Shown: positions 19,029-49,216 of the stretch, piece after piece | Layout of the letters: each line of letters begins with the position of its first letter | Position numbering within the stretch: the stretch's first letter is position 1 | Origin: Minisyncoccota bacterium | GTDB taxonomy: Bacteria > Patescibacteriota > Minisyncoccia > JAHIHE01 > JAGLIN01 | Assembly: GCA_041661265.1 (NCBI GenBank) | Contig: JBAZUT010000004.1 | Coordinates: forward strand, 63,980 to 127,979 | Direction of reading: 5' to 3' | DNA length: 64,000 nucleotides | Position numbers and translations under genes: made by a program | The notes under the pieces: model-generated | The model's database searches: none | The model's input: only the letters and a program-made list of their open reading frames with translations | Told to the model about the DNA's origin: nothing

Positions 19029-19032
19029 AAAA

Positions 19033-22401: not shown

Positions 22402-22417
22402 ACATGATAATCGGAAT

Positions 22418-23053: not shown

Positions 23054-23060
23054 ATATTTT

Positions 23061-23615: not shown

Positions 23616-23623
23616 GAACAAAT

Positions 23624-24088
23624 ATGAAAAAAATCGAAATAAATTCGAGAACCTTGAATAAAATGGCGCTTTGGATAGTCGCAAAAAGAGGTGTTTTTTT
23701 GATCGTTTTTTTTGGCGCTCTTTTGATATATAGTTTCGATGTGATCTATAAAAATGCATATATCAAATTGGAATACATCGATTATTCGAATAGCGCGGTT
23801 ATCTTTGATGGAAGGAAAGAAAGCGCTGTGATCACAAAGATCACTGATAGTTTGCGGGAAAAAGATGCCATTATAAACAAAGCTTTAGATAAAGAGTATA
23901 AAGATATTTTCGTATATGAGGTTATTCAGAAAGCGGAGAATTCCGTGCCTCTGGAAACAGAATATAGCACAGAACGCCCTGTTTCCGAGAACGCGGATGG
24001 CTCAGCCGCAGGCGTGGGCGCAGCAGAGGGGGGCAATGCGGGAAGTCCGATAGATCCCGGCATAATAGTGGATGAAACGGTCAAATAG
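23624..24088 (+). CDS. Small bitopic membrane protein at the end of T4P cluster 1 (PilP-like position).
   Basis: 154 aa. N-terminal TM (LIVFFGALLIYSF); C-terminal low-complexity acidic/Gly tail. Family not recognised. Confidence 0.5.
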   Translation: MKKIEINSRTLNKMALWIVAKRGVFLIVFFGALLIYSFDVIYKNAYIKLEYIDYSNSAVIFDGRKESAVITKITDSLREKDAIINKALDKEYKDIFVYEVIQKAENSVPLETEYSTERPVSENADGSAAGVGAAEGGNAGSPIDPGIIVDETVK

Positions 24089-33336: not shown

Positions 33337-33867
33337 TTACTTTTTTAAAAATATCGAAGCTCCGATCGTCATCAGGTCGGGAGCGGCATCGGTGTCCTGA
33401 GAATTTCTGATCTCGATCCTGTTTATTTTCGTAAGATGTGGAAGCTTGGAAAAACCATCGGTAAACCTAGAAAAGAATTCCTTCTTTCCCGAAAAAATTA
33501 CCGTGAAATTAAGTTTGTTCGTATTCGGGCTGAAAGATTCGGGGTTATTATCGAATTTGATCGTATTGCTTCCCCCAAGCTCGAGGGACAGTTTATCAAT
33601 CCTGTCAATGAGATCATCCATATCGTCTATTCCCGGAAACAGACTTCTTGCTTTTGGAAGGCCATCGCTTACTATCGCATAGTCCTTTTTCAGATTAACA
33701 AAATTGCTTTCCCGTTTATCGAGAGAAATAACCATGTTGCGCCTTTGGGAGATCTGGTTGACCTCTGCGGATATTTTGTCTTTCATTACAAAAAGCGCGA
33801 GCGTGGAGGAAATGGCCGCAATAATGACGAAAGCTGAGATCTTTATGATTGGCTTGGATATCGGCAT
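33337..33867 (-). CDS. pilO: PilO-like pilus alignment protein (cluster 2).
   Basis: 176 aa. N-terminal TM, coiled coil, C-terminal domain; follows the PilM-N gene in the same orientation. Confidence 0.65.
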   Translation of the reverse strand: MPISKPIIKISAFVIIAAISSTLALFVMKDKISAEVNQISQRRNMVISLDKRESNFVNLKKDYAIVSDGLPKARSLFPGIDDMDDLIDRIDKLSLELGGSNTIKFDNNPESFSPNTNKLNFTVIFSGKKEFFSRFTDGFSKLPHLTKINRIEIRNSQDTDAAPDLMTIGASIFLKK

Positions 33868-33870
33868 ATG

Positions 33871-35346
33871 TTATTTTATATACATCGTAAGATTGAAATT
33901 TATGTCGCTTTTTTTCGCAATATCCGATGAAGACAGAGAAGCGTTAAAAAAATCATCAGAAGCGGCTACAGTATTCTTGAAATACTTGTATCCTTCCCTG
34001 GATGATGATATTCCGGATATGTTTATCGTTTTTGCCAGGTCGTTTATGCTGATGTTCGAAAAGGATATTCCGGTCGTTGCGAGCCTGTTTATCTTTCCGA
34101 TCAGTTCGGAGTGATCAGTTTGCGACAGGGATCTGATGCTGCTGATATCGGAAATGTATCCGTTAAACTCTTTTGTGTCAGTTTCCATTTTGAGGTATTC
34201 TGCGGATATCGGGACACTGTTCTTTACATTCAGCTGATTTGTGAGGCCGGCTTCAAGCGATGTTATGAATATAAAGAATGCTATGAATATTGAAACGTAG
34301 AAGACCGATAAGGACGATATAAAGAAAAGTATTGATTTCGAAAAAGATATGGCTTTTTGGGTTTCGTACAGGCTTTCGGTCCCGACAGGGAGAAGGCTTA
34401 TTATGGTGTCGTCGCTTCTGGGTATGAAAGCTCTTGCGGCGGCGCCTGCAACAGGAAGCCAGTCGCTGTTTTCAAGGGATTTGATCTTGATACTCGTTTT
34501 TTCAATGGGGATCTGGATCTTCCCTATCTTTTTGATCAGGGCGTCTGTATTGAAACCCTGGCTGACAATAAGCGCTTTTTCTATGCCGATGGATCCGTTC
34601 TTGCTTTCGAAATACAGAGAGAGTGTGACGATCTTCGCTTTAATTACAGTTTTGAGATCGTTCAGGTTTTTTATGGGTTTTCCAGCTGATGCTTCCCGCC
34701 ATGTTTCAAATTGGCTGAAATAGGGCCGCTTGTTTTGATATATCGTGCTGCTTATGCCCTCGTCCGTGAGATGTATCAGGGCAATAGGGGACTCCGGCAG
34801 ATCAATCACTCTTTCCAGGCTGAGGAAGTATGTTTCGAGCGCGATAAGTTCGAATGAACTCGCCTTCAACGCTTCGATATATGCATCGATCAATGTTTTT
34901 TTTGCCAAAGAAACAAGGACCTGTTTTTTGCCGTTGATCTCGCCGACAATCTCCCAGTCAAAATAGCATGAAGACAGCGGGAATGGAAAGCTGTCGGATG
35001 CGTTCGTGGTGATCGCTTCGAGAAGCTGTTCGCTGTCGAGGATCTTCGGGAATTCCAGGATCTTGCTGTATATCCTGTTGGGCGGGATCGTGACCACTGC
35101 GAAGTTTGAAAGAAGTTTTTTCGGAGCGAACGTTTTTTTCAGCTTCTCCAGCGCCACAACCAGTTTTTTCTTGTCCGTGATCTCTCCTGAGGCGATTATG
35201 CCGTCATCGAGCTCAACCTCGGATCTTCCCTTGATGGAGATATTGCCATAAGCGTCCTGCTGCAAATAAAACATCCTCAGTTTCTCGCTGCTTATATCGA
35301 TCCCTACGATCTTTTCTTTTGGAACAAGGAGTTTTATCAGGTTCAT
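33871..35346 (-). CDS. pilM: PilM-PilN fusion protein (actin-like PilM domain plus TM plus PilN-like periplasmic domain).
   Basis: 491 aa. N-terminal PilM-like fold (IVGIDISSEKLRMFYL, ...IALIHLTDEGISSTI...), central TM (ILFFISSLSVFYVSIFIAFFIF), C-terminal about 130-aa periplasmic region. Confidence 0.75.
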   Translation of the reverse strand: MNLIKLLVPKEKIVGIDISSEKLRMFYLQQDAYGNISIKGRSEVELDDGIIASGEITDKKKLVVALEKLKKTFAPKKLLSNFAVVTIPPNRIYSKILEFPKILDSEQLLEAITTNASDSFPFPLSSCYFDWEIVGEINGKKQVLVSLAKKTLIDAYIEALKASSFELIALETYFLSLERVIDLPESPIALIHLTDEGISSTIYQNKRPYFSQFETWREASAGKPIKNLNDLKTVIKAKIVTLSLYFESKNGSIGIEKALIVSQGFNTDALIKKIGKIQIPIEKTSIKIKSLENSDWLPVAGAAARAFIPRSDDTIISLLPVGTESLYETQKAISFSKSILFFISSLSVFYVSIFIAFFIFITSLEAGLTNQLNVKNSVPISAEYLKMETDTKEFNGYISDISSIRSLSQTDHSELIGKINRLATTGISFSNISINDLAKTINISGISSSREGYKYFKNTVAASDDFFNASLSSSDIAKKSDINFNLTMYIK

Positions 35347-35358: not shown

Positions 35359-35778
35359 TTAGAATATCTCTTTTTTGGATAGCAGCGTCAGTCTGCCGTT
35401 GCTGTCCATATCAAAAGATGCTTGAATTTTTTTTGTGTTATTATCAAAAAGTCCGGTACTGGTTATTATGATCTGATTCGGGGGGGGGGAGCTGTCAAAA
35501 TCAATGGTCGCTGTGCCATTATTCAGCTGCAACGTATAGCCGGTATTATAGTTCTTGTCCCGTGCGACCTTTTCCAGCGCATCTCTTATTCCTGCTTCCG
35601 CGATATAGTAGGCGTTAAGCGCATTTTCGTTGTTCCTGATTATCTCGATCTTATTATAGCTTGCCAAGTTCATTGCCAGTCCGATCGCAAGCAGTGCGGC
35701 AGCAAGTATCAGAACAGTCGGAAGCGCGATTGCTCCCTTATCATGCAATGCGGTTTTGTTTGATATAAATTTGGTCAT
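35359..35778 (-). CDS. PilX_N-domain minor pilin / pseudopilin.
   Basis: 139 aa. N-terminal hydrophobic anchor plus ALNAYYIAEAGIRDALEKV (PilX N-terminal-like). Overlaps the upstream pseudopilin gene by 4 nt. Confidence 0.7.
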   Translation of the reverse strand: MTKFISNKTALHDKGAIALPTVLILAAALLAIGLAMNLASYNKIEIIRNNENALNAYYIAEAGIRDALEKVARDKNYNTGYTLQLNNGTATIDFDSSPPPNQIIITSTGLFDNNTKKIQASFDMDSNGRLTLLSKKEIF

Positions 35779-36356
35779 TTTGGTAAAACAGTTGTCTGGC
35801 TTGTTTGTCGATATACATAATCACGTCTTCCGTTATCATTATAGCTTATATTCAGCTTAATTTGAATAGAGCCGGCTATGTTTTTGAAGGTCGGATCATT
35901 CGGAGGATTTGATGCGGAAAGAGTGACTTTCGAGCTTAGAAGGTCCTGAGGCGTGCAGTCGGGGTCGGGGGTGGCGCAATCGATCTTGCACTCGCCCGAT
36001 GCCAGGCAGTTCGCTCCCAAAACACCCAAAGTTCTTTTGAGCGTTCCGTTTTGCGCATCAAATCGGAGCAGTATCTCGCCTGAATTCGATACGATATCCA
36101 AAATGTCTCCATTCGGATTTATATTGACGGAATCGGCTCCTTCCTGGCCTCTTGTGCCATTAACGATATTCTGCATGGCGAATTGAAGATTTTGCTGGAC
36201 CTCGGTTCTTGCCTCGCTTGATCCGGAGTTGATGGCAAAGATGGAAAAAACATTGGCAATGACCATCATGACTCCCGCCAAAAGCCCCATGTAGATGAGG
36301 AGTTCGAGGAGGGAGAATCCACCGCTATACTTATTTTTTATAGTTTTATCGGACAT
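35775..36356 (-). CDS. Prepilin-type minor pilin.
   Basis: YSGG|FSLLELLIYMGLLAGV with Glu+5; 193 aa. Confidence 0.85.
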   Translation of the reverse strand: MSDKTIKNKYSGGFSLLELLIYMGLLAGVMMVIANVFSIFAINSGSSEARTEVQQNLQFAMQNIVNGTRGQEGADSVNINPNGDILDIVSNSGEILLRFDAQNGTLKRTLGVLGANCLASGECKIDCATPDPDCTPQDLLSSKVTLSASNPPNDPTFKNIAGSIQIKLNISYNDNGRRDYVYRQTSQTTVLPK

Positions 36357-36371
36357 AATACTTATAATTTA

Positions 36372-36410
36372 CAATTCTCAATTTCCAATTTCCAATTTCC
36401 AATTTTCAAT
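36372..36410. repeat. Heptanucleotide tandem repeat (CAATTTC, 5 units, 3 perfect) starting 16 nt upstream of the pseudopilin start codon.
   Basis: caattct caatttc caatttc caatttc caatttt, in the 5' UTR/promoter region of the - strand gene 35775..36356. Confidence 0.85.
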
Positions 36411-36683
36411 GAATATTGATTAATTGAAAATTATTCCAGGAATGTAAAATGAAAAAATCAAAGATAAAAATTATGGTGTTTTTGTCTTCAGGCCAAAAAC
36501 AGATCTGAATCAATAAAGGAACCTCTGAAAAACTCCATTTTGTCATTCCTGTGAAAGCAGGAATCCACTATTTAAGCTAAACTTTATTTTACAAAATGTT
36601 ACATTCTGACTGTTTTTCAGACTTTCCTAAAGTTTGAAATCCGAGTTGTCATTTTCATTTTTTATTTAAAATTTACATTTGTT

Positions 36684-37961
36684 TCAGGGTGCCCAATTCA
36701 CGACAACGCTGTCAACTTGCGGATTGTTCGATCCGCTTATGGCGCAGCTCGGATCCGAGCATAGGATGATCTTGTATCGGAAATATTTTTTGTTGTTGTG
36801 ATCGTCATAGCACTTGATCTCCTGAGGGGCGCCGGATGCGTTCTCGTAGTATGTCGTGTCCAGACATCCCAACCCCTGATCGGGTCCGAGGTATGCCCAA
36901 TTGCCGCTGTCGTCACAGGCAGGAGGATTTGTTTTTCCGTTCGGGCAATTCGATGTTGCGAGCTGGAGTCTGACGCCCCCGCCGTTCAAAAGCCCAATCC
37001 ACATTATCGAATTATATGCGGCGCCTTTTGCGGATCCCGTGTCGAAGGTCGAGGATATCGAGTATCCGGTTATCGGATATGTGCCTTGTTCCGCGTGTTC
37101 GTAAGTCAGATAAAGACGGGCGCTCCAGGAGCTGACCGGTTTATCGGAAGTGAAGTGAAATGTATAATCTTTATTGTTGACGATGTCCATGTCGGATAAG
37201 GCATCATATCTTATCATGAATTTTGTCGTGCTTTGCGGACCAAGATCGATCGCATAAGACTTTTTATAGTTCACTGAAGCGCCCGAATTATAGAGACCTG
37301 CCTGAACCGTGCCGGCACCGGAGCCTTTGAAGACGCCGCCAATCTCGACAATCGCGCTTCTCAAAACGGGATTTGTTTCGGGAGCCGAGATCGAAAAATT
37401 TTTGGTGATCACTCCGTTTGCGGCAGTTTTGCTGTTTTCCTGTCCGACAAAGAATTCCGTTGTCTTGAGAAGAGTGCTTTGAACGCTGTCGTATTCATAG
37501 GTCAGGATCAGTTTTGCGGAAAATATGGAGAAATTACCCCCGGTTGCGCTTCCCGTCAGATTCAGGGTATAGGCAGCGGTTGTATTGAAAATTATGGATG
37601 TTGCATCGTAGTTTATATTGAATTCTTGTGCTTTGGTCGAAAGGTCGATCATATATGTTTTTGGATCAGAAGCTATTCCGCCCTGAAGGTCTGTTGTGAT
37701 GCTCTGAGATCCTGAGGTATTATATGAAATTCCGCTAATCTCGATGTGAGCTGTCTTGATCGTGACTGCATTTTCCGGGATCGTAACACTGAATGCGGAA
37801 GAATAGGGGGTTCCTGCCGTTTGAACGGCATTATCTTGTGCGGCAAAAAAAGTCACTGTCTTGGAAACCGTAAGCGCATTCAGTTTTTTTGAATATGAAA
37901 AAAATAGCGTTGTCAGCGGCAAGATCAAAAACATCAAAATAATTTTATTGCGCTTTTTCAT
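36684..37961 (-). CDS. Secreted protein: two copies of a ~125-aa beta-rich domain of unrecognised family plus a C-terminal 8-Cys domain; adhesin-like.
   Basis: Signal peptide MKKRNKIILMFLILPLTTLFFS. Domain copies end AKLILTYEYD and ARLYLTYEHA and share F[FV]AxQ, TIPE/SAPE, LRSAIVEI/KTAHIEI, YTLNL/YTFHF motifs; C-terminal Cys-rich ~130 aa. Confidence 0.7.
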   Translation of the reverse strand: MKKRNKIILMFLILPLTTLFFSYSKKLNALTVSKTVTFFAAQDNAVQTAGTPYSSAFSVTIPENAVTIKTAHIEISGISYNTSGSQSITTDLQGGIASDPKTYMIDLSTKAQEFNINYDATSIIFNTTAAYTLNLTGSATGGNFSIFSAKLILTYEYDSVQSTLLKTTEFFVGQENSKTAANGVITKNFSISAPETNPVLRSAIVEIGGVFKGSGAGTVQAGLYNSGASVNYKKSYAIDLGPQSTTKFMIRYDALSDMDIVNNKDYTFHFTSDKPVSSWSARLYLTYEHAEQGTYPITGYSISSTFDTGSAKGAAYNSIMWIGLLNGGGVRLQLATSNCPNGKTNPPACDDSGNWAYLGPDQGLGCLDTTYYENASGAPQEIKCYDDHNNKKYFRYKIILCSDPSCAISGSNNPQVDSVVVNWAP

Positions 37962-37970
37962 CTGATCGAA

Positions 37971-40900
37971 TTAGGGGGTGTAGGAATACGTTAAGATCAA
38001 TTTTGCGTTCAGGACATAAGTCGGTGTGGTTGTACCTTTCAGGAACAAGGTATAATTCTTGCTTCCGGCGGGGCCTGAGGTTGTGAGGTCCTGCATATTC
38101 TCCTGTCCGTTGCCCTGAACATTCAATGCGTCAAAAAGGATCGTGAACGGTGTGGGTCCTGAGGAAGAAGACTCGATCGTGAAATTGTCTCCTGCAGGCC
38201 CTGAGGGCTGATTTCCGCGCAGGAATCCCACGTTTATGGTCTGATCGGACGCAGAGGCTCCGGACACGCCATTCAGTTCTATCATTGCGGATCTCAGGGA
38301 TACGGTGTTATTCGGGTTTTCGGGGATGGTAACAGAAAAATTAAATGATCTGGCTGTTTCCACAACAGACCCTTGCTCCTGGGCAATAAACATCTCAACG
38401 GTCTTTATGGGCATGGCGGCTCCGGTGGCGAAAGTGCAGTTTGCAGAAAAGCCTTCGTTTCCAAAAAAGTCTTTCGAACGGGCCCTTAACACATAACCCG
38501 ATCCGGGCGAAAGATTTGAAAGGCTGATCATATGAATTCCGCCTGCTCTGGGATTCGGGATCGCCGGAGAAAAGTTTCCGGGAATGGACCATGTTTCGGC
38601 ATCTGTACCGATCTTATATTCGACTTGAGCTGTGGCGAAATCTTCTTCTCCCGGAGGATTGGCGTCGTTCGTATTCCAATCGATCATAGCGGATGTATCG
38701 GAAATATTCGATGCCGGGCAGACTCCTGCAAGGAGAGGGGGAGTGTTGTCGAGATAGAGGTCCGTGTTTGTCGCCTGAGGCGCGGTTCCGAATTCGGTCC
38801 ATGGGCCGATCTTTCCGGCTGAATTCGTCAGTCTTATATGCCAATGATAATTCCCGTCATTTGCTGCGGTTATACCGCTTACGTTCAGGAAGTCTCTGAT
38901 CATTATTCCGGAATAGGGGAACGATCCCTGAACAAAGAATCCGGAGGTCCGTTCAGGACAATTCGGGAGTATGCACTGAAAGCTTATTCCTATCGGCTGC
39001 ATTTCAAATTCTGGCGTGATCGTTTCCCCCGATGTCTTGTTGGAATCCATATCCAGTCTGAAATACGCCGATGATTGATTCCCGAGCCCTCCTCCTTCCG
39101 CAATGTCCAAGGTCGGGGGTTGGGCAAGATCAGTGTTGGCTGCGAACTGAAAAATGTTTGAGATTGCCGAATTTATGGTTAAGCTGCTGTAGCTTCCCGA
39201 TAGGCCGCTAGAGGGATTAGTTACGACGACAGTCCATGTGCCGACTTTTATTTCTGTAAAATCAAAAGCTCCTCCGTTCAAAAGTGCGGCACTTACTCTT
39301 GTAAAGGGAGTGGAAGGTGTTAGATCGGTTTCTCCTGCCATGGTAAGTTTTATAGTAGGACTTAAGTCAAAATTATTTCCATTTATTGAAATGCCCGACA
39401 GTAGTTCAAAATCAAATCCATTTGCGGGAGAGATTCCTGTAATACTTGGTCCGTTCGGATTTACAGTAAGGCATCCCCCGCAGGTGCTTACAAATCCGTC
39501 CATGTTTGTAAGCTCGAGGTCCCATGCTCCGTCGATGGCGCTGGATAAGTCAAATGTTGCGTACACATTCTGATATGCGGTTGTAACGCCATAGGCAGCT
39601 CCGACATTGTCTCCCTGAATGGAAGTTTGACCCGTTTTCTTCAGCCGGAAAACCGGTCTCGTGTCGGTGGGCATTGTGTCAGAATCGATCCCGAAACCAT
39701 TGAAATGTATGACGACACCTGTCTGTCCGCTTGTAACCGGAGATGAAGAGGAGCTGGTTATGAGCGGAGGGTCAATAGTAAAATTTCCTGCCGGATATTG
39801 ATTACTGGTTTTTGCGTCTGAACGAGTTAGCTGGATTTTGCCGGTCGTGACACCAACTCCCTGCTGTCCGGGAATTCGAACTGTCAGACTAGTTTCACTC
39901 CAACCTCCGATCAGTGCGGCAGAATTATTGATTACAGTCACGCTGCCGGTGCTTGTTCCAAAATGATCGCCGGAGATTACGATATTCGAGCCGATCTGTC
40001 CGTTTGCCGGTGCGGAACTGATATTCGGGTAAATATAAAAATCCAAAGGCGTGCTGTCGGGAGCTCCTGCGCTGACTACTTGCAGGGAAACCAGTCCTCC
40101 GTATGAGGCGAGATTGGCATTAACCGCAAATGTAATGGACGAGTTTGACCAGGCGGTTACATCGGCGTCAGTCACTGTGGCATTGCCACCCACGATAAAT
40201 CTCACGCATCCCGTTCCTGCGCCTCCCGCACAGTTTGCCCTGGAGCCTGCCAGCACCGTCCCAAAATTGGAGCCGGTTATGATGGCGCTATAGCCGCTTC
40301 GCGCTCCATCACCGCCGATCTCATAAGAAACGGAGGTTGCATCCATCACCGCCGCATTGATCGTAATCATGCCTGGAGAATAATCGCTGACATCAGGGTT
40401 GACGCCATCAGTGGCGATCCCATAAATATAATAATTTCCGGGAGTAATCCCTGTCGTGTCCCATGAACAAATGGCGCCGGAACCCTCAGCTTGATTCTGA
40501 CAGGTTGGAATTGCTGTATATCCATTTCCGCTATTGGTATCGCTGTCATAATAGAAATTAACCGTAGCCGCGTCTTCTGCGTCGGAAAGATCATACATGA
40601 TGTTGTATGGATCGCCAACAGCCACAGTGTCACTTGTGCCGTCGGGCTGGATGACAGAAAGTACGGGTGCAGTGTTAGGCTGTTTTTTTATAATAAACAT
40701 TCTGCCTGCGCCGGCCTGCGTGGTACCTGTAGTGGTAATCGTTTTGGCGGTTATGGTCTGGCTCGCGCCGGATGAATTCAATCCGGTTTGCACGACCGCT
40801 CCGGCATCGGTTCCCAAATTAGTATTGGCGGTAGTTCGCACCGCCCAGGTAAGCGAATTTCCCGAAAGCACGGTCTGGCCGGTAATATTTTCAAATCTGC

Positions 40901-41588
40901 CACCAAACACCACGGCCATGTCTCCGTCATTAACTGTGGCTATCGCCGGCGCGGCTATCGGTCCGATATTAAGCGATGATGCCCAGTTGGAAAGAGAGGC
41001 GGTGTAGTTGACGATCGGATTTATTGTATCTGTTCCCCTGTAAGTTTGAATGAATTCAATCACGGTTTCACCGGAATTACCTGCCGTGTGATTGGTGATA
41101 CTTGCCTGAAATGTTCCATCACCAGCTTGCTTCATTCGCCAGCCAACCGCAACCAGACCCCTACTTACCGTTACTGAACTGAAAACGGGAGTAAAGCCTG
41201 CAGGGAGATTTACGGTTTCATTTCCGCCTGTAGCGCGGGAATAGTGGTAGAAAACCAACAGATCGCCGTCTGAGGTGGAAGCGTTCGGAGTTATCGCGCC
41301 CGGTGCGCCTCCATTAGTATAAATTATGTTGGAGTTGCCGATATAACCGGCTGCCGCACGCGCTTCCTGAACTTTTATTCCCTCGGCCAAATTTCTGTAT
41401 GAATTGAATTTATCGACCACATTCTCGTCTTTTGAAATGTGAAAAGCCTTATCGACGATATCGCGCGAAGCGAGATAGGAGTTGATAACTGAATCGATAA
41501 CATAAAAAGGACCGTTGGAAAATGATATTCCCAAGATCGCTGTAAAGATCAGAAAAGATCTGAGGATTTTATTAATTATTTTCTTCAT
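37971..41588 (-). CDS. Giant secreted cell-surface adhesin-like protein (1205 aa) with multiple Ig/FN3-like beta modules; C-terminus is a third copy of the ~125-aa domain.
   Basis: Signal peptide. Gly/Thr/Ser/Ala/Asn-rich beta-strand-like composition with repeated about 90-100-aa modules. C-terminal ...FIAQEQG...TIPENPNNTVSLRSAMIELNG...YTLFLKG...AKLILTYSYTP matches the domain in 36684..37961. Higher local G+C than neighbours. Confidence 0.8.
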   Translation of the reverse strand: MKKIINKILRSFLIFTAILGISFSNGPFYVIDSVINSYLASRDIVDKAFHISKDENVVDKFNSYRNLAEGIKVQEARAAAGYIGNSNIIYTNGGAPGAITPNASTSDGDLLVFYHYSRATGGNETVNLPAGFTPVFSSVTVSRGLVAVGWRMKQAGDGTFQASITNHTAGNSGETVIEFIQTYRGTDTINPIVNYTASLSNWASSLNIGPIAAPAIATVNDGDMAVVFGGRFENITGQTVLSGNSLTWAVRTTANTNLGTDAGAVVQTGLNSSGASQTITAKTITTTGTTQAGAGRMFIIKKQPNTAPVLSVIQPDGTSDTVAVGDPYNIMYDLSDAEDAATVNFYYDSDTNSGNGYTAIPTCQNQAEGSGAICSWDTTGITPGNYYIYGIATDGVNPDVSDYSPGMITINAAVMDATSVSYEIGGDGARSGYSAIITGSNFGTVLAGSRANCAGGAGTGCVRFIVGGNATVTDADVTAWSNSSITFAVNANLASYGGLVSLQVVSAGAPDSTPLDFYIYPNISSAPANGQIGSNIVISGDHFGTSTGSVTVINNSAALIGGWSETSLTVRIPGQQGVGVTTGKIQLTRSDAKTSNQYPAGNFTIDPPLITSSSSSPVTSGQTGVVIHFNGFGIDSDTMPTDTRPVFRLKKTGQTSIQGDNVGAAYGVTTAYQNVYATFDLSSAIDGAWDLELTNMDGFVSTCGGCLTVNPNGPSITGISPANGFDFELLSGISINGNNFDLSPTIKLTMAGETDLTPSTPFTRVSAALLNGGAFDFTEIKVGTWTVVVTNPSSGLSGSYSSLTINSAISNIFQFAANTDLAQPPTLDIAEGGGLGNQSSAYFRLDMDSNKTSGETITPEFEMQPIGISFQCILPNCPERTSGFFVQGSFPYSGIMIRDFLNVSGITAANDGNYHWHIRLTNSAGKIGPWTEFGTAPQATNTDLYLDNTPPLLAGVCPASNISDTSAMIDWNTNDANPPGEEDFATAQVEYKIGTDAETWSIPGNFSPAIPNPRAGGIHMISLSNLSPGSGYVLRARSKDFFGNEGFSANCTFATGAAMPIKTVEMFIAQEQGSVVETARSFNFSVTIPENPNNTVSLRSAMIELNGVSGASASDQTINVGFLRGNQPSGPAGDNFTIESSSSGPTPFTILFDALNVQGNGQENMQDLTTSGPAGSKNYTLFLKGTTTPTYVLNAKLILTYSYTP

Positions 41589-42543
41589 GATAATCTCTTA
41601 TATAGGCGTAAGTTTTTTCTGAAACATCTTCCATTTTTTCCATGGCCATCTTTTCATTGTTGTCTCTTATCATTATGGTCAGCAAGTATGGCCTGTTTTT
41701 AAAATATATCAGTCCGGAATCCAAATAAATTTCTTTTTCCCGATCTATGCCGATTTTATGCGAAAAAATGATATCTTGGGGCAGTGCGCTTTGGATATAA
41801 TCTTTAAACGGCGATTGAGACAGGAAGTTAAGCAGTTTTTGCGAATTCTCGTCGGATAAATAGGAGGAATTATACAGCGTTCTAAAAATAACCGAATATC
41901 TTTTGGCGCTAAGATTGCCGTTCGTAGAGAGAAAACCTTTCAATCCCATGTGCTCATACACATCGTCGATTTCCTCCGTTTCCAAATTCCTAACCAGGAT
42001 AAAGTGTGCCGTGTTGTCAGAATCGGCAAGAGAACGTCTTACGAGTTCTTCTATGGTGAATGTCGATCCGGTAGATTCTTTGTGCAATGATCCGAATTTA
42101 TCATCCCTATCCGAAGACATGAGCACCAGCTTGTTGGTCCATTTCCATTCGCCTTTTTCTATTTTTTTTGCAACGGCCATAGCCGCTGGAACTTTCAGTA
42201 AGCTTGCCGGATAGAATTCGGCGTCTTTGTTTGTTGCGATACTGGCACCTGTCGGCAAATACTCAAAATAGATCGAAACATTCAAATCTTTTTTATATTT
42301 TTCGTCTAAGTATTCGCGGAGCGGCTGTACATTGATTATCAAGTCTTGTTTATCAATTAGTTTCCTGGCGGGATCAAGAAATTCGAATTTTCCGCTCGCA
42401 GACTCTTTCGAAATATTCGTTTCATCCGGCGCATAAACGAAAAATGTCCACAAGTTTGTTATCGTCAAAATCGCCGTCAAAATCCCTAATGCGATTACAG
42501 TTATATTTTTATCATTGTTTTTCTTGTTCCCGATTTCTTTCAT
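41572..42543 (-). CDS. Membrane-anchored class-A beta-lactamase-fold serine hydrolase (penicillin-binding-protein-like).
   Basis: N-terminal TM. SxxK (ASLLK), SDN (DSDNTA) and KxG (HKIG) motifs in the correct order and spacing for class A / PBP-like enzymes. Overlaps the adhesin gene by 17 nt. Confidence 0.65.
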   Translation of the reverse strand: MKEIGNKKNNDKNITVIALGILTAILTITNLWTFFVYAPDETNISKESASGKFEFLDPARKLIDKQDLIINVQPLREYLDEKYKKDLNVSIYFEYLPTGASIATNKDAEFYPASLLKVPAAMAVAKKIEKGEWKWTNKLVLMSSDRDDKFGSLHKESTGSTFTIEELVRRSLADSDNTAHFILVRNLETEEIDDVYEHMGLKGFLSTNGNLSAKRYSVIFRTLYNSSYLSDENSQKLLNFLSQSPFKDYIQSALPQDIIFSHKIGIDREKEIYLDSGLIYFKNRPYLLTIMIRDNNEKMAMEKMEDVSEKTYAYIRDYHEENN

Positions 42544-42558: not shown

Positions 42559-43146
42559 CTAAATTTCCGCATTAACCGTATGGCTGCCTTTTGGAAAGAA
42601 GATCGTCCAGATGAATTTTTTAGCTCCAGCATCATAATGCATCGATAGGCTTGTGATCTCAGGATTTTCCGGATAAGTCGAGAAGAATGTTTTTGCGACA
42701 AGCGTAGAATCCACAAATTCTCCTTTCAGTGTCTGAAGAGCTTTCACCGATTCTTTTTCTTCTCCGCCCCGCGATTCTCCGTCTTTAACGACGATCTCAT
42801 AGAGCATGTTCTTCGCCTGTGAATAGAAAACGAATTTCCAGCCATTGGACTTTCCTTCGGCCGTGAACTTTTTGGAAAAAAGGGTGATCTCGGAAAGATA
42901 TGAATCTTCTGACCAGGCCAGGGCATCCTGATCTGCAAGCCGCAGAGCTTCTTTCGCCGTAAGGTCGGCCTGAACTGTTTCTCGTTCGATCAATTTATTG
43001 TCATTTTTTTCAGAAGGAACATCGTTTTGCAGATTGATGGTCTTTGTTCCGGATAGGGGTCCTGGTTTCAGCGTATAGCCAAGCGCAAGACCCGTGAGGA
43101 ATGCGAGGATGATCGCAAGACCTGATAAAGCTTTACCATATTTCAT
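42559..43146 (-). CDS. Membrane-anchored or lipoprotein-like hypothetical protein.
   Basis: 195 aa; N-terminal hydrophobic segment ALSGLAIILAFLTGLALG then a soluble domain. Inside T4P operon 2. Confidence 0.55.
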   Translation of the reverse strand: MKYGKALSGLAIILAFLTGLALGYTLKPGPLSGTKTINLQNDVPSEKNDNKLIERETVQADLTAKEALRLADQDALAWSEDSYLSEITLFSKKFTAEGKSNGWKFVFYSQAKNMLYEIVVKDGESRGGEEKESVKALQTLKGEFVDSTLVAKTFFSTYPENPEITSLSMHYDAGAKKFIWTIFFPKGSHTVNAEI

Positions 43147-43164: not shown

Positions 43165-43878
43165 TTATTTAAATTTCAGCGAGCCCGCACCGGTGTCCAG
43201 TTTACCGCTGCCATTATCCAGGTCGCTATAGGAATCCCATCCATTCTCATTTGCGGGGTTATCCAATCCTGCGGTGCAAACGGACAATGCGGCGTTCCAT
43301 GTTCCCGAAAGCGCCTCGCATCCGGCCTGATCGGCGGGAGCGGGGGATCCCCAGCCGTCCTGTTTCATTATCCTGTTCTTCCATCGTGTGACATATTGTT
43401 CCAGAATAGCGTCTTTCCCGTCGGCATAGGATATTACTATCTTTATTTTCTGCGTTGACGGATCTTCGGACCCGGATGATATCGAGATGTTTCCGTTGTC
43501 GCGATTGACGTTGTCGATGATTATCTTTCTCGTATAGACCTTGTTGTTAAGCGTGATATCGCAATCGGACGCGACGTCGGTGAGCAGCCAGGAGGATGCG
43601 TCATTCTTCAAGCAATAAACGAAACTTTCGCCCTTGTTGTTCTTGCTGCCGTTTCCGTCCGGAGGAAGATAAATGCTGTGCCAGGAGCTTTCGCTTATGG
43701 ATTTGACAGCTTCCATGCCTTCTTGGGCGAGCATCAACGCATCAAATCTGCTTTCCGTGAACTTTCCTTCTTTCATGTTCACGAAAAAGAGGTTTGAGAC
43801 CGCGATCACGATAATCGCAACCACCATTATGGCAACGAGCATTTCTATTAAAAGCTGGCCTTTTGAATTTAATTTCAC
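43165..43878 (-). CDS. Prepilin-type minor pilin.
   Basis: NSKG|QLLIEMLVAIMVVAII with Glu+5; 237 aa. Confidence 0.8.
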   Translation of the reverse strand: MKLNSKGQLLIEMLVAIMVVAIIVIAVSNLFFVNMKEGKFTESRFDALMLAQEGMEAVKSISESSWHSIYLPPDGNGSKNNKGESFVYCLKNDASSWLLTDVASDCDITLNNKVYTRKIIIDNVNRDNGNISISSGSEDPSTQKIKIVISYADGKDAILEQYVTRWKNRIMKQDGWGSPAPADQAGCEALSGTWNAALSVCTAGLDNPANENGWDSYSDLDNGSGKLDTGAGSLKFK

Positions 43879-43902: not shown

Positions 43903-44388
43903 TTAAGGCATGCCGACAAATCCGGAAGTTCTTATGGATATATCTATATACAAGCTGGTATCTGCGAAGTCCTCTATCCTGATAGTGCAGTCGCGCGTTG
44001 TTTCTGCATTGGGCCGCGAGAAAATGATCTCATTACATCCGCCCAAAAGCGAATCGGCATTGATCTTCAGGGTGTTCGGCAGATAATCTTCCTTGACCGT
44101 GGTTTTTGTCGTGCCGTCATCGCTGAACGTCGAGATCTTGCCGCTTGCCGCATCAAATGAAACTCCCCAATTCTTTGCTTCGTTTCCGCTTAGGGCTTTC
44201 GCCTGAGCGCTCCGGAGCAAGCTGATGATTATCCTTGAAGAAGAATCGAGGTCTGCCGATTTTTTATACCCTCCCAGCCAGAGCGAAATTCCGGAAGCAA
44301 AAACAGCAAGGATGGCGATCGATATCAGAAGCTCGATCAGGCTGAAACCATGCTCAGTATCAAGTATCAAGTATTTTGTATTTAGCAT
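43903..44388 (-). CDS. Prepilin-type pilin.
   Basis: DTEHG|FSLIELLISIAILAV with Glu+5; 161 aa. The leader peptide is encoded by a 9-bp tandem repeat (see 44355..44443). Confidence 0.85.
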   Translation of the reverse strand: MLNTKYLILDTEHGFSLIELLISIAILAVFASGISLWLGGYKKSADLDSSSRIIISLLRSAQAKALSGNEAKNWGVSFDAASGKISTFSDDGTTKTTVKEDYLPNTLKINADSLLGGCNEIIFSRPNAETTRDCTIRIEDFADTSLYIDISIRTSGFVGMP

Positions 44389-44487: not shown

Positions 44488-45699
44488 TCATCCCACCGTC
44501 CCGACGATCTGATATATGGGAACGATGATCGAGAACGCGATGCCTCCGACGATCAGCCCCATCACAAGGATGAGCAGAGGTTCTATCAGGGAGATGACAT
44601 TCTTGAGTCCGTTATCAACTTCTTCCTCATAAAAAGCGGCAAGATCTTTCAGGACCGAATCCAGTTTTCCGGTTTTTTCTCCCACTGAAACCATGTTTAT
44701 CACGAGGTAGGGGAAATCCTTCTTTCTTCTTCGCAGTGACATTCCCAGCGATGATCCCTGGCTGATCTCGGTGTTGATCTCCTTGAAGTCGTTGCGATAT
44801 CGGTTGTATCCGAGGACTTCGCTTGATATGTCAATGGCCTTGAGGATGCTGACTCCGCTTGAAAGAAGGATCCCCAATGTCCGCGTGAATCTCGCCAGCA
44901 CTATTTTCCTATAAAGGTCCGAAACGACGGGCGTCCTCAGCATCAGCGATGAACTGAAAAACTGGAATGAAGGCCGGTTCTTGACAAGCATGAATGTTGC
45001 AACGGATGCAATAAGCGCAATTATGATGACAAGGATATTCTTTCCCAGAAAATCGCTGACGCTCATTATGAATTTTGTGCTCCATGGAAGATTCAGGTTG
45101 TTCTGAAAAAAGACCTTGGTCAGCCGGGGGATCACAAGGACCATGAGGATCGTTATGACGCCGAGGGATGCCAGAACAAGGATCGCCGGATATATCATCG
45201 CATTTTTAACCTTCTGCCTCATCTTATAATCCTTTTCGATCTGGATCCCGAGATAATCAAGAGATCTTTCCAAGGTTCCGGACACTTCTCCGGATTCGAG
45301 GATCGCGATGAATACTTTTGAAAAGAAATTCGGATATTTTTTGAAAGTATAGGACAGCGGCTGTCCTTTTTCCAGGTTTGATTTCGCTTCAGTGAGGATC
45401 CTGATGAGGATCTTTTTTCTTGCGTCATTAAGAAGTGTGTCCAGCCCTTCCTTTAGGCTGAGGCCGGCTTTGATTATTATGGAAAGATGTTTCGTGAGCA
45501 TGAGCTTGTCGACTGCAGACGGCGCCGAATGACCAAAAAGCGAAAGCCTTCCCATGGGATTCTGCTTTTCTTTTATGGAGACGACCGTCAGATTCTGACG
45601 GTTGAGATAGCCGAGGGCGATATCCTTGTTCTGAGCCTCTGTCTCCCCGTTGGTTATCTTTCCCTTGCTGTTTACCGCGGTATATATGAATGTGGACAT
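44488..45699 (-). CDS. pilC: Type IV pilus platform protein PilC (GspF family), second copy.
   Basis: 403 aa; two T2SF repeats, three TM; same architecture as 15730..16944. Confidence 0.9.
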   Translation of the reverse strand: MSTFIYTAVNSKGKITNGETEAQNKDIALGYLNRQNLTVVSIKEKQNPMGRLSLFGHSAPSAVDKLMLTKHLSIIIKAGLSLKEGLDTLLNDARKKILIRILTEAKSNLEKGQPLSYTFKKYPNFFSKVFIAILESGEVSGTLERSLDYLGIQIEKDYKMRQKVKNAMIYPAILVLASLGVITILMVLVIPRLTKVFFQNNLNLPWSTKFIMSVSDFLGKNILVIIIALIASVATFMLVKNRPSFQFFSSSLMLRTPVVSDLYRKIVLARFTRTLGILLSSGVSILKAIDISSEVLGYNRYRNDFKEINTEISQGSSLGMSLRRRKKDFPYLVINMVSVGEKTGKLDSVLKDLAAFYEEEVDNGLKNVISLIEPLLILVMGLIVGGIAFSIIVPIYQIVGTVG

Positions 45700-45936
45700 T
45701 GAAGTAAATTCAAAAATAAAAAATCAAAATGTAAAATGACAGATCAAAATGATAAAAGTTTGCATTTAATAACTGATGACCGGGAAACAAACGCCAAACA
45801 AGTTTCAATCACCGAATGAACAAAGTACGAGCATCTGATTATTACTCGCCTGCAGGCAGACAGATATTTTGATGTTTGGATATTTTAAGCTTTGCATTTT
45901 CACTTTGATTTTTGATATTTAAATTTTACATTATCA

Positions 45937-47637
45937 TCACTCCCTTATCACCCTCAATATCTCCGAAATGGTAGTGAGCCCTTTCTGCACTTTCTCAAGT
46001 CCGTCCTCGAACATAGGGACCATGCCTTCTTTTTCCGCGGTATCCCTGATCTCGCTTCCCTGGGCTTTTCTCAGGATCAGCTTTTTTATTTCGCTCGTGA
46101 TGTTCAAGAATTCAAATATGCCGATCCTTCCGCGATACCCGCTTTTTCCGCAGATCTCGCAGCCATTCGCGCTGTATATAGTGTCGAAGGTGCCTATATT
46201 GAACTTGGAGTGCGGATTCTGAGACAGCTGGCTCTTGATGATCTCAAGCGTTTCGGCGTCGATCTTTCCGCTCGAAAGGCATTTGGTGCAGTTCTTCCTG
46301 ACCAGCCTTTGCGCTATGACAAGGTTCAGCGTGGAAGCGAGAAGGAACGGTTCAGCTCCCATGTCGATCATTCGGGGGATCGCAAGAGACGCGCTGTTCG
46401 TGTGGAGGGTTGCAAGGACGAGGTGTCCCGTGAGCGAGGCCTGGATCGCCATATTAAGTGTTTCTTTATCCCTTATCTCTCCGACCATGATGATGTTCGG
46501 GTCCTGGCGGAGGAATGACCGGAGTCCGTCCGCAAAAGTGATGCCGGTCTTTTTGTTGACCTGCGTCTGGTTTATCCTGGCTATGTCGTATTCGATCGGA
46601 TCTTCAATGGTGCAGATGTTGACCTCCTGTTTGTTCAATATGTGCAATATGGAATAAAGAGTGGTTGTTTTTCCGCTTCCGGTGGGGCCTGTCACGAGGA
46701 TCATTCCCTGAGTTTTCATGATGTTCGCATAAAGCGATTCATGGCAGTTCTCGGATAGTCCCAGTTCGGCGAAGCTGACGGGTCCGAGGGATCCTGAAAG
46801 TATCCTGAGCACGGCTTTTTCTCCATGGAATGTCGGCATGATGGAAACTCTGACCGAAATATCCCTGTCTTGAGATCTGAATTTGAACCGGCCGTCCTGG
46901 GGCGCTCTGTGTTCATCGATCTGCAGGTTCGAAAGGATCTTGATCCTTGCGATAAGGGCGGAATGAACGATGGCGGGAAGTTCCGTGATGTCATGCAAAA
47001 TGCCGTCGATCCTGAATCTCACAACGACCTTGTTCGCAAATATCTCAAAGTGGATGTCGGACGCGTTGCCATAGGCCGCATAGTCCAGGATCGTGTCCAT
47101 GATGGAAATGATCGGGATCTCCTGGGCGATCTTTGCGGGATCATCCTGGCTCGTTTTTGCTTTTTCGATGTTGCTTTCGATTATATCATAGAATTCCTTT
47201 CCGATATCGCGCTTGTAGTTTTTCATCGCCTTTTTCAGCTTTTCTTTTCCGGCAATATATATTTTGACCGGCATGCCAGTCGTTATTTTCACATATTCTA
47301 TGGTTTCAAGGTCCAGGGGATCCTGCATGGCAATCTTCAGGAATCCTTTTTCTTCCCCGAATGCGATGAGCTGTTTTTTTTGGGCCATGCTTTCGCTTAT
47401 TCTGGAAAGTACCTTCGAATCGATCTTTTCTTTGGAGGGATCGGCTTCGGGAACATCAAGATATTCCGAAAGAAGTTCGGTGAGATAGTTTTCGGTCAGC
47501 ATGTTGCCGCCGATGAGCACATCCGCTATCGATTCTCCGGACCGGATGGACTCTTCTTTCGCTTTTGCAAAATCGGATCCGTCGATAATTCCGGAATCCA
47601 GGATTATTTTTTCCAATGTTTTTTCGGGGAGAAGCAT
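45937..47637 (-). CDS. pilB: Type IV pilus assembly ATPase PilB (GspE family), second copy.
   Basis: 566 aa; Walker A GPTGSGKTTT, tetra-Cys CTKC...CEICGKSGYRGR, N-terminal GSPII_E_N-like domain. Confidence 0.92.
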   Translation of the reverse strand: MLLPEKTLEKIILDSGIIDGSDFAKAKEESIRSGESIADVLIGGNMLTENYLTELLSEYLDVPEADPSKEKIDSKVLSRISESMAQKKQLIAFGEEKGFLKIAMQDPLDLETIEYVKITTGMPVKIYIAGKEKLKKAMKNYKRDIGKEFYDIIESNIEKAKTSQDDPAKIAQEIPIISIMDTILDYAAYGNASDIHFEIFANKVVVRFRIDGILHDITELPAIVHSALIARIKILSNLQIDEHRAPQDGRFKFRSQDRDISVRVSIMPTFHGEKAVLRILSGSLGPVSFAELGLSENCHESLYANIMKTQGMILVTGPTGSGKTTTLYSILHILNKQEVNICTIEDPIEYDIARINQTQVNKKTGITFADGLRSFLRQDPNIIMVGEIRDKETLNMAIQASLTGHLVLATLHTNSASLAIPRMIDMGAEPFLLASTLNLVIAQRLVRKNCTKCLSSGKIDAETLEIIKSQLSQNPHSKFNIGTFDTIYSANGCEICGKSGYRGRIGIFEFLNITSEIKKLILRKAQGSEIRDTAEKEGMVPMFEDGLEKVQKGLTTISEILRVIRE

Positions 47638-47639
47638 GG

Positions 47640-47735
47640 GCGAAAGTCAAAAGTTAATAGTCCAAAGTCAAAAGTCGTAAGTTTAAAACCAAAAGTCAAA
47701 AGCTTAAAGTCTAAATCAAAATCAAAATTATAGAA
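47640..47735 (+). repeat. (A)AAAGTC / AAAGTT heptamer-type oligomer array between the membrane-protein gene and pilB-2.
   Basis: gcgAAAGTCaAAAGTTaatAGTCcAAAGTCaAAAGTCgtAAGTTtaaaaccAAAAGTCaAAAGCTtAAAGTCtaaatcaaaatcaaaa; same unit as the 5' part of the composite repeat (copies A, B, D). Confidence 0.75.
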
Positions 47736-47738
47736 TCA

Positions 47739-48344
47739 TTATGATACCAGCTTCAGCTTGTCGAGGCCCAGTCTGTCGCCGAAATATAGCGAGAGGGAAA
47801 GGACGGTGATGGCCGCTATGATCATATATGGCGCGATGGGTATGAGCTCTCTTTTTTGAAGTGCGTAATAATTGAAAATTTGCTTTATGACCAGAAGCCC
47901 GAAAACGGCAAAGACATAGATGATAAAATTCGGCCAGCCGGCGATGAGCGCCGTGAGAAAACCCAGATAAACTTCCTTTTCATCCAGGAAGCGTCTGTTC
48001 GAATATTTGCAAAGCAGCATGAGATAGAAAGCCCAGGCGAGAGCTATTGCGACGTCAAGGACATAGGGGAGCCAGAAGCGATATATTGCATAGTTATAGA
48101 AATAGTCGATCGAGCGGAAAGGGGGGAGGATAAATTGGCTCAAGGGATCTTTTTCCCAGACCTGGAATTGGATCGACGTCGAAAAGCACGCGGTCATAAT
48201 AAAAACAGACATCAAAAATAGGATGCCGAATTTAACAAAGCCCGCGCTGACCCTTTTGTTTTTCACATAATCGTATAGCAGCAAAAACATCCATAGGAAG
48301 GATATTGCAAGCTCGGATATTTTTAATGCAGGAAGAATTTGCAC
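47739..48344 (-). CDS. Polytopic membrane protein (about 6 TM) between the major pilin gene and pilB; possible A24-like prepilin peptidase, very tentative.
   Basis: 201 aa; GTG start. Position (pilA, this gene, pilB, pilC) is where pilD often sits and there are Asp residues in predicted membrane segments (YVLDVAIALAW; YFGDRLG), but the canonical A24 motifs are not clearly recognisable. Confidence 0.5.
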   Translation of the reverse strand: MQILPALKISELAISFLWMFLLLYDYVKNKRVSAGFVKFGILFLMSVFIMTACFSTSIQFQVWEKDPLSQFILPPFRSIDYFYNYAIYRFWLPYVLDVAIALAWAFYLMLLCKYSNRRFLDEKEVYLGFLTALIAGWPNFIIYVFAVFGLLVIKQIFNYYALQKRELIPIAPYMIIAAITVLSLSLYFGDRLGLDKLKLVS

Positions 48345-48399
48345 AGTGTTTTGTTTAGAATATTTTTGTGAAGAATTTGTTTTTGTTTTGCTCGGCGAG

Positions 48400-48442
48400 C
48401 CTAAAGCTTAGTTTTAGGATAATCCTAAAACTAAGCTTTAGG
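48400..48442. repeat. Perfect 19-bp inverted repeat with a 5-nt loop (CCTAAAGCTTAGTTTTAGG ataat CCTAAAACTAAGCTTTAGG), copy 2.
   Basis: Identical arms to 9434-9476. Lies between the major pilin gene (about 100 nt downstream of its stop) and the GTG start of 47739..48344 (56 nt upstream). Confidence 0.85.
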
Positions 48443-48500
48443 GCACAAGGCGCTGAAGATTTAATTTGCTTTAAGACCCATCGATCTAGCAGCCATTATG

Positions 48501-48526
48501 GATAGATCGTTTTTTAACGATCTATC
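48501..48526 (-). other. Perfect 9-bp stem-loop (GATAGATCG-ttttttaa-CGATCTATC) 16 nt downstream of the major pilin stop codon; candidate attenuator, terminator or mRNA-stabilising hairpin.
   Basis: Read directly. No clear U-tract on the pilin-sense strand, so the terminator assignment is uncertain. An overlapping second imperfect hairpin (CGATCTA...TAGATCG) lies at 48484-48510. Confidence 0.35.
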
Positions 48527-48541
48527 GAAATGAGTGCTAAC

Positions 48542-49216
48542 TTAGAAATCTGTTCCTCCACCCAAAATTGTCAGACTAGTTCCGGTTTCGTATAAATCCG
48601 GGTTATTGCCGCCGTCCGATACTGCCTTCGCACCGAATTCGGTGCTTTCGAGTTTGGCATCTATCTCATAAGTTAAGCTATCTCCGCAAGCATATCTATA
48701 AACAAGGTCTGAATTGGCCACGCCTGCAGCAGTAACTGTATTGACCGGGTCAACTGGAAAATTCGATATTGGAGAGCCTCCCGCTAGACTGCTTATATTA
48801 ACGGGAATCCATCCATTTCCGGTCGTAAGCCCGATATTTGCTGCGGTTACCTGACCAGCGCCAGCTGTTCCTGTGAAAGTGGTTCCATCCAGTATCATAT
48901 CCGAAATATCGGTGGTATCGCTTGGAACGCTGTAATATATCTTACCACTGGATTCTTCTCCTACCCAGGTTGCTCCCACTTTGCAGGAACCATTGCTTCC
49001 CATGTCCATGGCAGGGGTCGTACTATTTGTAAGATATAGTCCGATGGCTGTTTTAACTGTTGAAAGATCGGTCATCCTTTGAGTGTCCCTGCTTTTCTTC
49101 ATCGTTTCTGCCGGATTTAGCACCAGGATCAGGGCCATAGCCAAGATTGATAGTATTGCAATGACTATCAAAAGTTCCAGAAGCGTAAATCCTTTTAATT
49201 GTTCTTGTTTAGTCAC
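48542..49216 (-). CDS. pilA: Type IV major pilin (PilA-like).
   Basis: EQLKG|FTLLELLIVIAILSILA with Glu+5, conserved pilin alpha1 helix, 224 aa; first gene of operon 2, followed by a strong hairpin. Confidence 0.85.
   Translation of the reverse strand: MTKQEQLKGFTLLELLIVIAILSILAMALILVLNPAETMKKSRDTQRMTDLSTVKTAIGLYLTNSTTPAMDMGSNGSCKVGATWVGEESSGKIYYSVPSDTTDISDMILDGTTFTGTAGAGQVTAANIGLTTGNGWIPVNISSLAGGSPISNFPVDPVNTVTAAGVANSDLVYRYACGDSLTYEIDAKLESTEFGAKAVSDGGNNPDLYETGTSLTILGGGTDF

Follow-up and report, generated by a model that had tools for sequence, protein, structure and literature searches.

In a 64,000-nucleotide stretch of DNA from a Minisyncoccota bacterium (contig JBAZUT010000004.1; the whole stretch is called the window here), two adjacent genes of a type IV pilus (T4P) operon encode a 1205-residue giant protein, p1205, and a 425-residue protein, p425, which share an unannotated domain that we call DOM. 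A second unannotated domain, CYS, forms the C-terminal part of p425. From comparative genomics only, and with what we regard as an even chance of being right, we propose that DOM is the coupling or stalk joint of a bipartite (split) PilY1-like adhesin associated with the pili of Patescibacteria, in which p1205 would provide the adhesin body and p425 the adaptor. The observations behind this proposal are the DOM family and its fold class, the synteny of the locus, the presence of DOM on both partners wherever both are visible, a relative in which both proteins form one chain, and fusions of CYS to pilins and to giants. Type IV pili are essential to the host-bound lifestyle of cultivated Patescibacteria; to our knowledge, what these pili carry and touch the host with is largely unknown.

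Results

DOM, an unannotated family with a predicted jelly-roll fold

Coordinates are positions in the window, and all operon genes described below lie on the minus strand. Both open reading frames (ORFs) are as an earlier sequence-only reading of this DNA had described them, and they divide as follows.

36684..37961 (-): p425, 425 aa; signal peptide/transmembrane segment, DOM, DOM and CYS; putative adaptor half (ORF list, AlphaFold2 (AF2) model)
37485..37874 (-): DOM copy 1 (p425 aa 30-159), directly after the predicted signal peptide, which ends ..KLNA before LTVSKTV
37089..37481 (-): DOM copy 2 (p425 aa 161-291)
36687..37082 (-): CYS domain (p425 aa 294-425), a 6-Cys beta domain with the conserved terminal strand PQVDSVVVNWAP-COOH (family alignment)
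37971..41588 (-): p1205, 1205 aa; giant secreted or anchored protein (putative adhesin body) with one terminal DOM
37974..38420 (-): DOM copy 3 (p1205 aa 1057-1205), reaching the C terminus (..AKLILTYSYTP-COOH)
38424..38708 (-): FN3-like domain (Pur_ac_phosph_N), directly preceding DOM copy 3 (Pfam)

DOM is an all-beta domain of ~130-149 aa. That p425 carries two copies of it and p1205 a third at its C terminus had been proposed from the sequence and is confirmed by pairwise comparison: the copies are 33% (E 6e-15), 34% (E 7e-14) and 29% (E 2e-9) identical by BLASTP, and the same three pairs give Smith-Waterman z scores of 20, 16 and 12 against 300 composition-preserving shuffles. Residues 34-157 and 165-285 of p425 both align to residues 1061-1203 of p1205 (BLASTP, E 2e-11 and 9e-8). 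The motifs quoted for the domain stand in part. The end motif [AK][KR]L[IY]LTY[ESQ][YH] and TIPE/SAPE occur in all three copies; LRSA..E..G and YTL.L[TK]G are exact in two and degenerate in the remaining one; F[FIV]AxQ as written fits copy 1 only, the actual consensus being KT.EFF.xQ.

The reading had not recognised the family, and neither do the databases. Neither p425 nor the DOM region of p1205 has a match in Pfam-A 2025 or NCBIfam 20.0; 32 DOM copies and 31 full-length homologues compared with curated libraries gave scattered sub-threshold matches with no recurring family; and neither a DOM profile nor a whole-protein profile found a match among PDB sequences. A hypothetical protein with exactly the p425 sequence exists at NCBI, from a metagenome-assembled genome (MAG) of a Candidatus Paceibacterota. 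The 50 detectable homologues of p425 are all named "hypothetical protein" and have no precomputed Pfam domain; the few with a named organism are from Patescibacteria. The only Pfam matches on p1205 are TIG (aa 527-596) and the FN3-like Pur_ac_phosph_N (aa 961-1055), and no relative of p1205 was found among PDB sequences.

An AF2 model of p425, computed from the family alignment (pLDDT 86.9), has a helix at residues 2-23 and all-beta domains at 31-158, 163-290 and 298-424, and a model of the isolated p1205 DOM (pLDDT 84.2, pTM 0.80) has eight strands, in the arrangement of a jelly-roll beta-sandwich. As modeled, DOM is a previously unannotated sequence family of a known fold class, the eight-stranded jelly-roll. 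Foldseek against the whole PDB returned topology-level similarity only, at TM-scores of at most 0.23, to the tandem or double jelly-rolls of SIDT1/2, PRD1-type capsids and tandem CBM22. An Ig-like or FN3 class for DOM was considered and ruled out; DOM is modeled as an eight-stranded jelly-roll, and the TIG and FN3-like matches lie elsewhere in p1205. Compared with jelly-roll carbohydrate-binding modules (CBMs), PNGase F domains and viral single jelly-roll capsids, DOM is 5-14% identical, shares no motifs and has no match at the family level, nor is a conserved ligand site apparent.

Across 88 aligned DOM copies, the conserved residues lie almost all in strands 1, 3, 6 and 8, the sheet that contains the first and last strands, and the loops are variable and gapped. 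This pattern suits conservation of a sheet or of a surface for packing better than it suits a sugar site of the loop type, and is compatible with a binding face of the sheet type. Linkers between domains are only 1-8 residues long.

A single-chain relative and two classes of DOM

The 1633-residue protein P0079 aligns to residues 398-925 of p1205 (31%, E 8e-51) and then continues, in a single chain, as DOM-DOM-DOM-CYS. The window has the parts of P0079 in unchanged order on two genes, with the break after the first of the three DOMs: body-DOM on one gene, DOM-DOM-CYS on the next. Given the single chain of P0079, we read the two genes of the window as a fission within the DOM array. The break is precise. 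In the giants, DOM ends no more than five residues from the C terminus (in p1205, two residues after the last DOM strand), and the first DOM strand of p425, like that of its homologues, starts directly after the AXA-type end of the signal peptide.

In a neighbor-joining tree of the 88 copies, most giant-borne copies (G-type) form one clade and partner-borne copies another, and the two copies of a partner (P1 and P2) are often sisters within a lineage. The window and two further loci (L002, L003) are a divergent group, all of whose DOM copies are nearer to the giant type. DOM totals per locus are 2, 3 or 5. The largely separate clades suggest two maintained paralogous roles, together with a copy number that changes readily in the partner.

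DOM on both partners in a conserved pilus operon

To place the two genes among their relatives, we used 82 loci: the window, L001 and 80 that the p425 family alignment retrieved when one genome per GTDB species was scanned. They were annotated with the pilus proteins of the window and with hidden Markov models (HMMs) of DOM and CYS built in this analysis. The 80 loci are titled almost all as Patescibacteria (Azam-, Falkow-, Yonath-, Wolfe-, Terry-, Nomura-, Colwell-, Lipton- and Harrisonbacteria, and "Saccharibacteria"). Six contigs (L010, L012, L015, L020, L029, L051) are titled "uncultured Gammaproteobacteria" or "Ignavibacteriaceae" despite a pilus operon of the Patescibacteria type; they are probably mislabeled or mis-binned MAGs.

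DOM is present in 34 of the 82 loci, 31 with an intact DOM-CYS gene and three in which that gene is frameshifted. Wherever enough upstream sequence is available, a giant ending in DOM accompanies the DOM-CYS gene (31 of 31 loci); in the three DOM loci with no visible giant, the contig ends within ~1 kb. In the other 48 loci, DOM was found on no ORF.

The pilus-operon context that the sequence-only reading had reported is borne out, with N_methyl pilins, PilB, PilC, PilM and PilO flanking both genes on the same strand. The neighbors in the window are these.

44488..49216 (-): PilC (T2SSF), PilB (T2SSE), a conserved 201-aa membrane protein and a 224-aa pilin (Pfam; order matched in related loci)
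43903..44388 (-): pilin161, minor pilin; N_methyl, above the Pfam cut-off
43165..43878 (-): pilin237, pilin-like; weak N_methyl match (E 0.02), below the Pfam cut-off
42559..43146 (-): p195, transmembrane-anchored; co-occurs with DOM; no Pfam match
41572..42543 (-): class-A beta-lactamase-like protein, transmembrane-anchored, upstream of the giant (Pfam Beta-lactamase2, E 7e-36)
35775..36356 (-): pilin193, pilin-like, directly downstream of p425 and kept in this place in most loci; weak N_methyl match (E 0.0024), below the Pfam cut-off
35359..35778 (-): p139, small, with a hydrophobic helix at the N terminus, putatively pilin-like; always after pilin193; no significant Pfam match
33337..35346 (-): PilM-like fusion protein (491 aa) and PilO-like protein (176 aa); PilM_2 E 1e-13, PilO E 2.6e-4, just under the Pfam cut-off

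The 201-aa membrane protein stands in the position of a prepilin peptidase; the name PilD was dropped for it, as it has no Pfam match. p1205 and p425 sit between pilin161/pilin237 and pilin193/p139, an arrangement kept in related loci. The conserved order is pilin, membrane protein, PilB, PilC, pilin161, pilin237, (beta-lactamase-like), giant, p195, CYS protein, pilin193, p139, PilM and PilO, and it is kept in relatives down to ~30% identity. The giant and the upstream beta-lactamase-like gene overlap by 17 nt at the start of the giant, and only 9 nt lie between the stop of the giant and the start of p425, spacings that suggest co-translation. The giant has an N-terminal hydrophobic segment with no clear signal-peptidase site.

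Upstream of p425 the genes are tightly packed or overlapping; between the p425 stop and the pilin gene that follows lies a non-coding gap of 327 bp (36357-36683), which may be the site of an internal promoter or terminator.

A homologue of p195, which consists of one transmembrane helix and ~170 aa, occurs in 24 of 34 DOM loci versus one of 48 DOM-less loci. Its usual place is after the giant and before the DOM-CYS gene, whereas the p195 gene of the window has shifted to a position upstream of the beta-lactamase-like gene. We regard p195 as a candidate for a third partner of the DOM proteins or for a factor in their assembly. An impression from reading its sequence that it is PepSY-like found no support, six family members having no Pfam match. 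Beta-lactamase-like homologues stand at the same position in 12 DOM loci and nine DOM-less loci, mostly with giants, and this protein could act in cell-wall remodeling for export of the giant.

CYS and its fusions

CYS is an unannotated family in its own right. In p425 it has six cysteines (339, 349, 366, 384, 401 and 406), not the eight counted in the earlier reading; Cys 366, 384, 401 and 406 are invariant or nearly so across the family. CYS sits at the protein C terminus in 82 of 83 family members.

The DOM-less loci join CYS to other proteins. First, in nine of them, giants (here, CYS-bearing ORFs of at least 750 aa) end directly in CYS, 10 such ORFs in all (L014, L028, L029, L031, L043, L049, L051, L056, L081). 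Second, in six loci a minor pilin of the pilin237 type is fused to CYS (L022, L034, L040, L059, L067, L071); P0050, a called protein on five contigs, matches pilin237 over residues 1-209 (E 3e-23) and then continues as CYS. Third, most of the remaining DOM-less loci have a ~280-430-aa CYS protein with an unrelated N-terminal part, and some of the short ones (~280-330 aa) bear the motif "YAWNDVIGWIDF". The terminal strand, P.V[DN][DE][VI][IV][VI][NS]W[SA]P, is kept in all four architectures.

DOM beyond the pilus operon

An exhaustive HMMER search of 1.84 billion cluster representatives with the DOM profile gave 296 matches at E <= 1e-3 and 180 at E <= 1e-10. Annotated with the two HMMs, the 296 include (a) proteins with a signal peptide, then one or two DOMs, then CYS; (b) proteins of 450-2100 aa with one DOM at the extreme C terminus, with at least 34 members; (c) proteins with three or four tandem DOMs near the N terminus followed by up to ~2800 residues; and (d) a single protein with 11-12 copies. 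Two metagenomic giants, P0138 and P0153, have one DOM right after an N-terminal "NIVDK...NV[VI]DNF" region and a second at the extreme C terminus; this N-terminal motif is common to giants of the DOM and CYS types.

Type (c) proteins are rich in N-x-S/T sequons, and those that could be named or placed in context are archaeal, one of them labeled Aenigmatarchaeota. Four loci (L082-L085) carry either an RNA polymerase operon of the archaeal kind or genes for LSM and ribosomal S8e, and have no T2SSE, T2SSF or PilM genes and no CYS within 8-10 kb. Some of the archaeal surface proteins end in a C-terminal hydrophobic anchor. DOM is thus not confined to pilus loci overall, as four-copy arrays occur in surface proteins of DPANN archaea. 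On whether the domain is restricted to T4P loci, a check that the sequence-only reading had suggested, the answer is therefore divided: it is so in every bacterial locus examined, but not in the DPANN arrays, which lack pilus genes.

In L082 (8745-15886; nearly identical in L083), the protein with four DOMs lies among unannotated genes for secreted or transmembrane glycoproteins, adjoining the RNA polymerase operon. Two of these neighbors share a C-terminal motif like "..FWLDVP..AG.YTGN(F/Y)T", and others have Ig-like parts and C-terminal transmembrane anchors. This run of glycoproteins may be another surface structure.

Other features of the window

A second, separate T4P-like cluster occupies 13822-24088 (+), with PilB (T2SSE, 597 aa), PilC (T2SSF), N_methyl pilins of 295 and 184 aa, a canonical PilM (356 aa), several small ORFs, and an unannotated protein of 686 aa with a match to p139 (phmmer E < 1e-5). 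It contains no DOM or CYS. Two pilus systems per genome have also been reported for TM7x. Elsewhere, 55349-57628 (+) encodes a secreted protein of 759 aa, with a Laminin_G_3 (concanavalin-like) domain at residues 214-373, Cys-rich segments at both ends and a C-terminal transmembrane anchor; it is a candidate surface adhesin unrelated to DOM.

Discussion

The sequence-only reading had offered two functions for the shared domain, a pilus-associated adhesin module or one for docking large surface proteins to the pilus or envelope. The fusions, the fission and the co-occurrence of DOM on both partners fit docking onto the pilus better than an adhesin module. They also refine the idea, in that DOM would be the joint between giant and adaptor, and CYS the module with the direct evolutionary link to the pilin, through its fusions to pilin237.

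We propose the following mechanism. The functional unit would be a variable giant body with Ig/FN3-like domains, followed by one to three DOMs and CYS, encoded inside the minor-pilin operon at the PilY1/PilC position of classical type IVa pilus operons. CYS would connect the unit to the minor-pilin complex, and DOM would be the stalk or joint between the variable body and CYS. In the window, fission would have split the unit, such that p1205 ends in a G-type DOM and p425 opens with DOM-DOM after its signal peptide. The C-terminal DOM of the giant would then pack non-covalently on the N-terminal DOM or DOMs of p425, as neighboring DOMs may do within a single chain, and p425 would be the adaptor that brings the giant, with its putatively adhesive body, onto the pilus or pseudopilus tip complex.

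The nearest functional precedent is PilC/PilY1. Their last ~10 residues fix these adhesins to the tip complex through a strand added to a minor pilin of the PilK type; where a system has no PilY1, a pilin itself supplies the strand in cis (PMC13533445). Attachment of CYS in cis, in the pilin237-CYS fusions, or in trans, in the giant-CYS and DOM-CYS proteins, together with its invariant terminal position, resembles this PilC/PilY1 pattern, although a whole domain is concerned here and the sequences are not homologous. On this resemblance rests the proposal that CYS would dock on a minor pilin.

As in PilY1/PilC of Pseudomonas aeruginosa, Neisseria and Myxococcus, a large non-pilin protein with an N-terminal signal-type segment (predicted for p1205) is encoded in a minor-pilin operon, and a variable N-terminal body precedes a conserved C-terminal module whose extreme C terminus is conserved. 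The differences are several. Neither p1205 nor p425 has sequence or domain homology to PilY1/PilC, and neither matches Neisseria_PilC in Pfam. The p425 model consists of three beta-sandwiches, with no beta-propeller. The C-terminal module is a ~130-aa Cys-containing beta domain, and the unit comprises two polypeptides that we infer to be joined through the jelly-roll DOM. The organism also differs, a Patescibacterium being assumed to have no outer membrane. By analogy, the system may function like an adhesin of the PilY1/PilC type without belonging to that family.

Several other systems bear comparison. The closest described object is PilX1 of TM7x (Nanosynbacter lyticus), a minor pilin whose C-terminal jelly-roll is described as "absent from CD-Search" (PMC11623550), which we liken to CYS and DOM by its description only. 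Unlike PilX1, the pilin237 homologue of the window has no extra domain; that domain lies on p425, behind two DOMs. Bimodular pilins, such as PilB and PilC of Streptococcus sanguinis (PMC8179133), likewise have a functional module grafted onto a pilin and displayed by the filament. In our system, by contrast, CYS is covalently grafted in some lineages only, and the window delivers it on separate proteins. In functional analogy to cohesin-dockerin pairs and to the C-terminal domains of the type IX secretion system (T9SS), a large extracellular protein would be tethered to a scaffold or surface by a terminal module; we found no structural or sequence relationship to these systems, and the pairing here would be between paralogous copies of one fold. 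Of the papers that our literature searches turned up, none describes DOM, CYS or giant proteins in Patescibacteria pilus operons.

A number of points weigh against a role of DOM as the joint of a split pilus adhesin. First, the pairing of one DOM with another is our inference from gene architecture. Second, varying DOM totals and sister P1/P2 copies would also be expected of a simple expandable stalk repeat. Third, the 82 loci were fetched through CYS, so that "always in pilus operons" is biased toward loci that contain CYS, and they are phylogenetically non-independent. Fourth, N-terminal four-copy arrays of DOM in DPANN archaea, lacking CYS or pilus genes, show at least one pilus-independent role. 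Fifth, if the N-terminal segment of the giant is an uncleaved anchor, it is harder to picture the protein riding on a pilus tip. Finally, the fold neighbors of DOM include many carbohydrate-binding modules.

The last of these points leads to the main alternative, in which DOM is a lectin- or CBM-like module, and both proteins bind the same glycan, on the surface of a host or prey cell or on the organism's own envelope. CBMs among its fold neighbors, the N-terminal placement of DOM arrays in archaeal surface proteins, and the interpretation of the TM7x PilX1 jelly-roll as a lectin (PMC11623550) all speak for it. We consider it rather unlikely, as it leaves unexplained both the joint presence or absence of DOM on the two partners and the giants fused directly to CYS. 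Less probable still is that DOM is a passive stalk or spacer repeat, such that after fission p1205, as an envelope adhesin, and p425, as a small protein of the pilus tip, became independent. A copy number that ranges from 1 to about 12, sister P1/P2 copies that imply recent duplication or conversion, and linkers as short as those of rigid repeat arrays would all follow naturally. The spacer reading is poorly matched, however, by the occurrence of G-type and partner-type DOMs together in every informative locus, and by the position of the giant's DOM, which is always the last domain and belongs to a largely separate maintained clade. A giant cut off from CYS would have no need of a single terminal DOM as an inert spacer, yet it keeps exactly one. 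That DOM is a C-terminal sorting signal or envelope anchor, like the T9SS C-terminal domain or SLH, which would place the giants on the cell wall or S-layer rather than the pilus, is very improbable: the long proteins with a single DOM exactly at the C terminus fit it, as do the membrane-anchored beta-lactamase-fold protein and p195 encoded alongside, but it accounts for architecture (b) only, DOM is N-terminal or internal and tandem in partner and archaeal proteins, P0079 has its DOMs between body and CYS, and no cell-wall-binding family was matched.

A bolder form of the split-adhesin proposal, which we hold tentatively and as less probable than the proposal itself, is that DOM is a self-pairing jelly-roll connector with which ultrasmall episymbionts would build modular surface adhesins out of parts encoded by separate genes. 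In Patescibacteria, a heterotypic joint between the G-type DOM of a giant and the DOMs of its partner, possibly assisted by p195, would load interchangeable giant bodies onto a conserved CYS adaptor that locks into the pilus tip complex, and the occurrence of DOM in DPANN archaea, the second radiation of episymbionts, would reflect a common or exchanged host-attachment toolkit of episymbionts.

Whatever the mechanism, Pfam and NCBIfam lack two well-defined families, DOM and CYS, that could be curated, and by its occurrence in DPANN archaea DOM unexpectedly links the two ultrasmall radiations. For the pili of Patescibacteria, loci of this type suggest a three-part architecture of pilin-linked CYS, jelly-roll joint DOM and hypervariable giant body. 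If this is true, it would be a natural case of a split adhesin rejoined through paralogous domains, and whatever precedes a terminal DOM or CYS would be a handle on the determinants of host specificity in hundreds of uncultured lineages.

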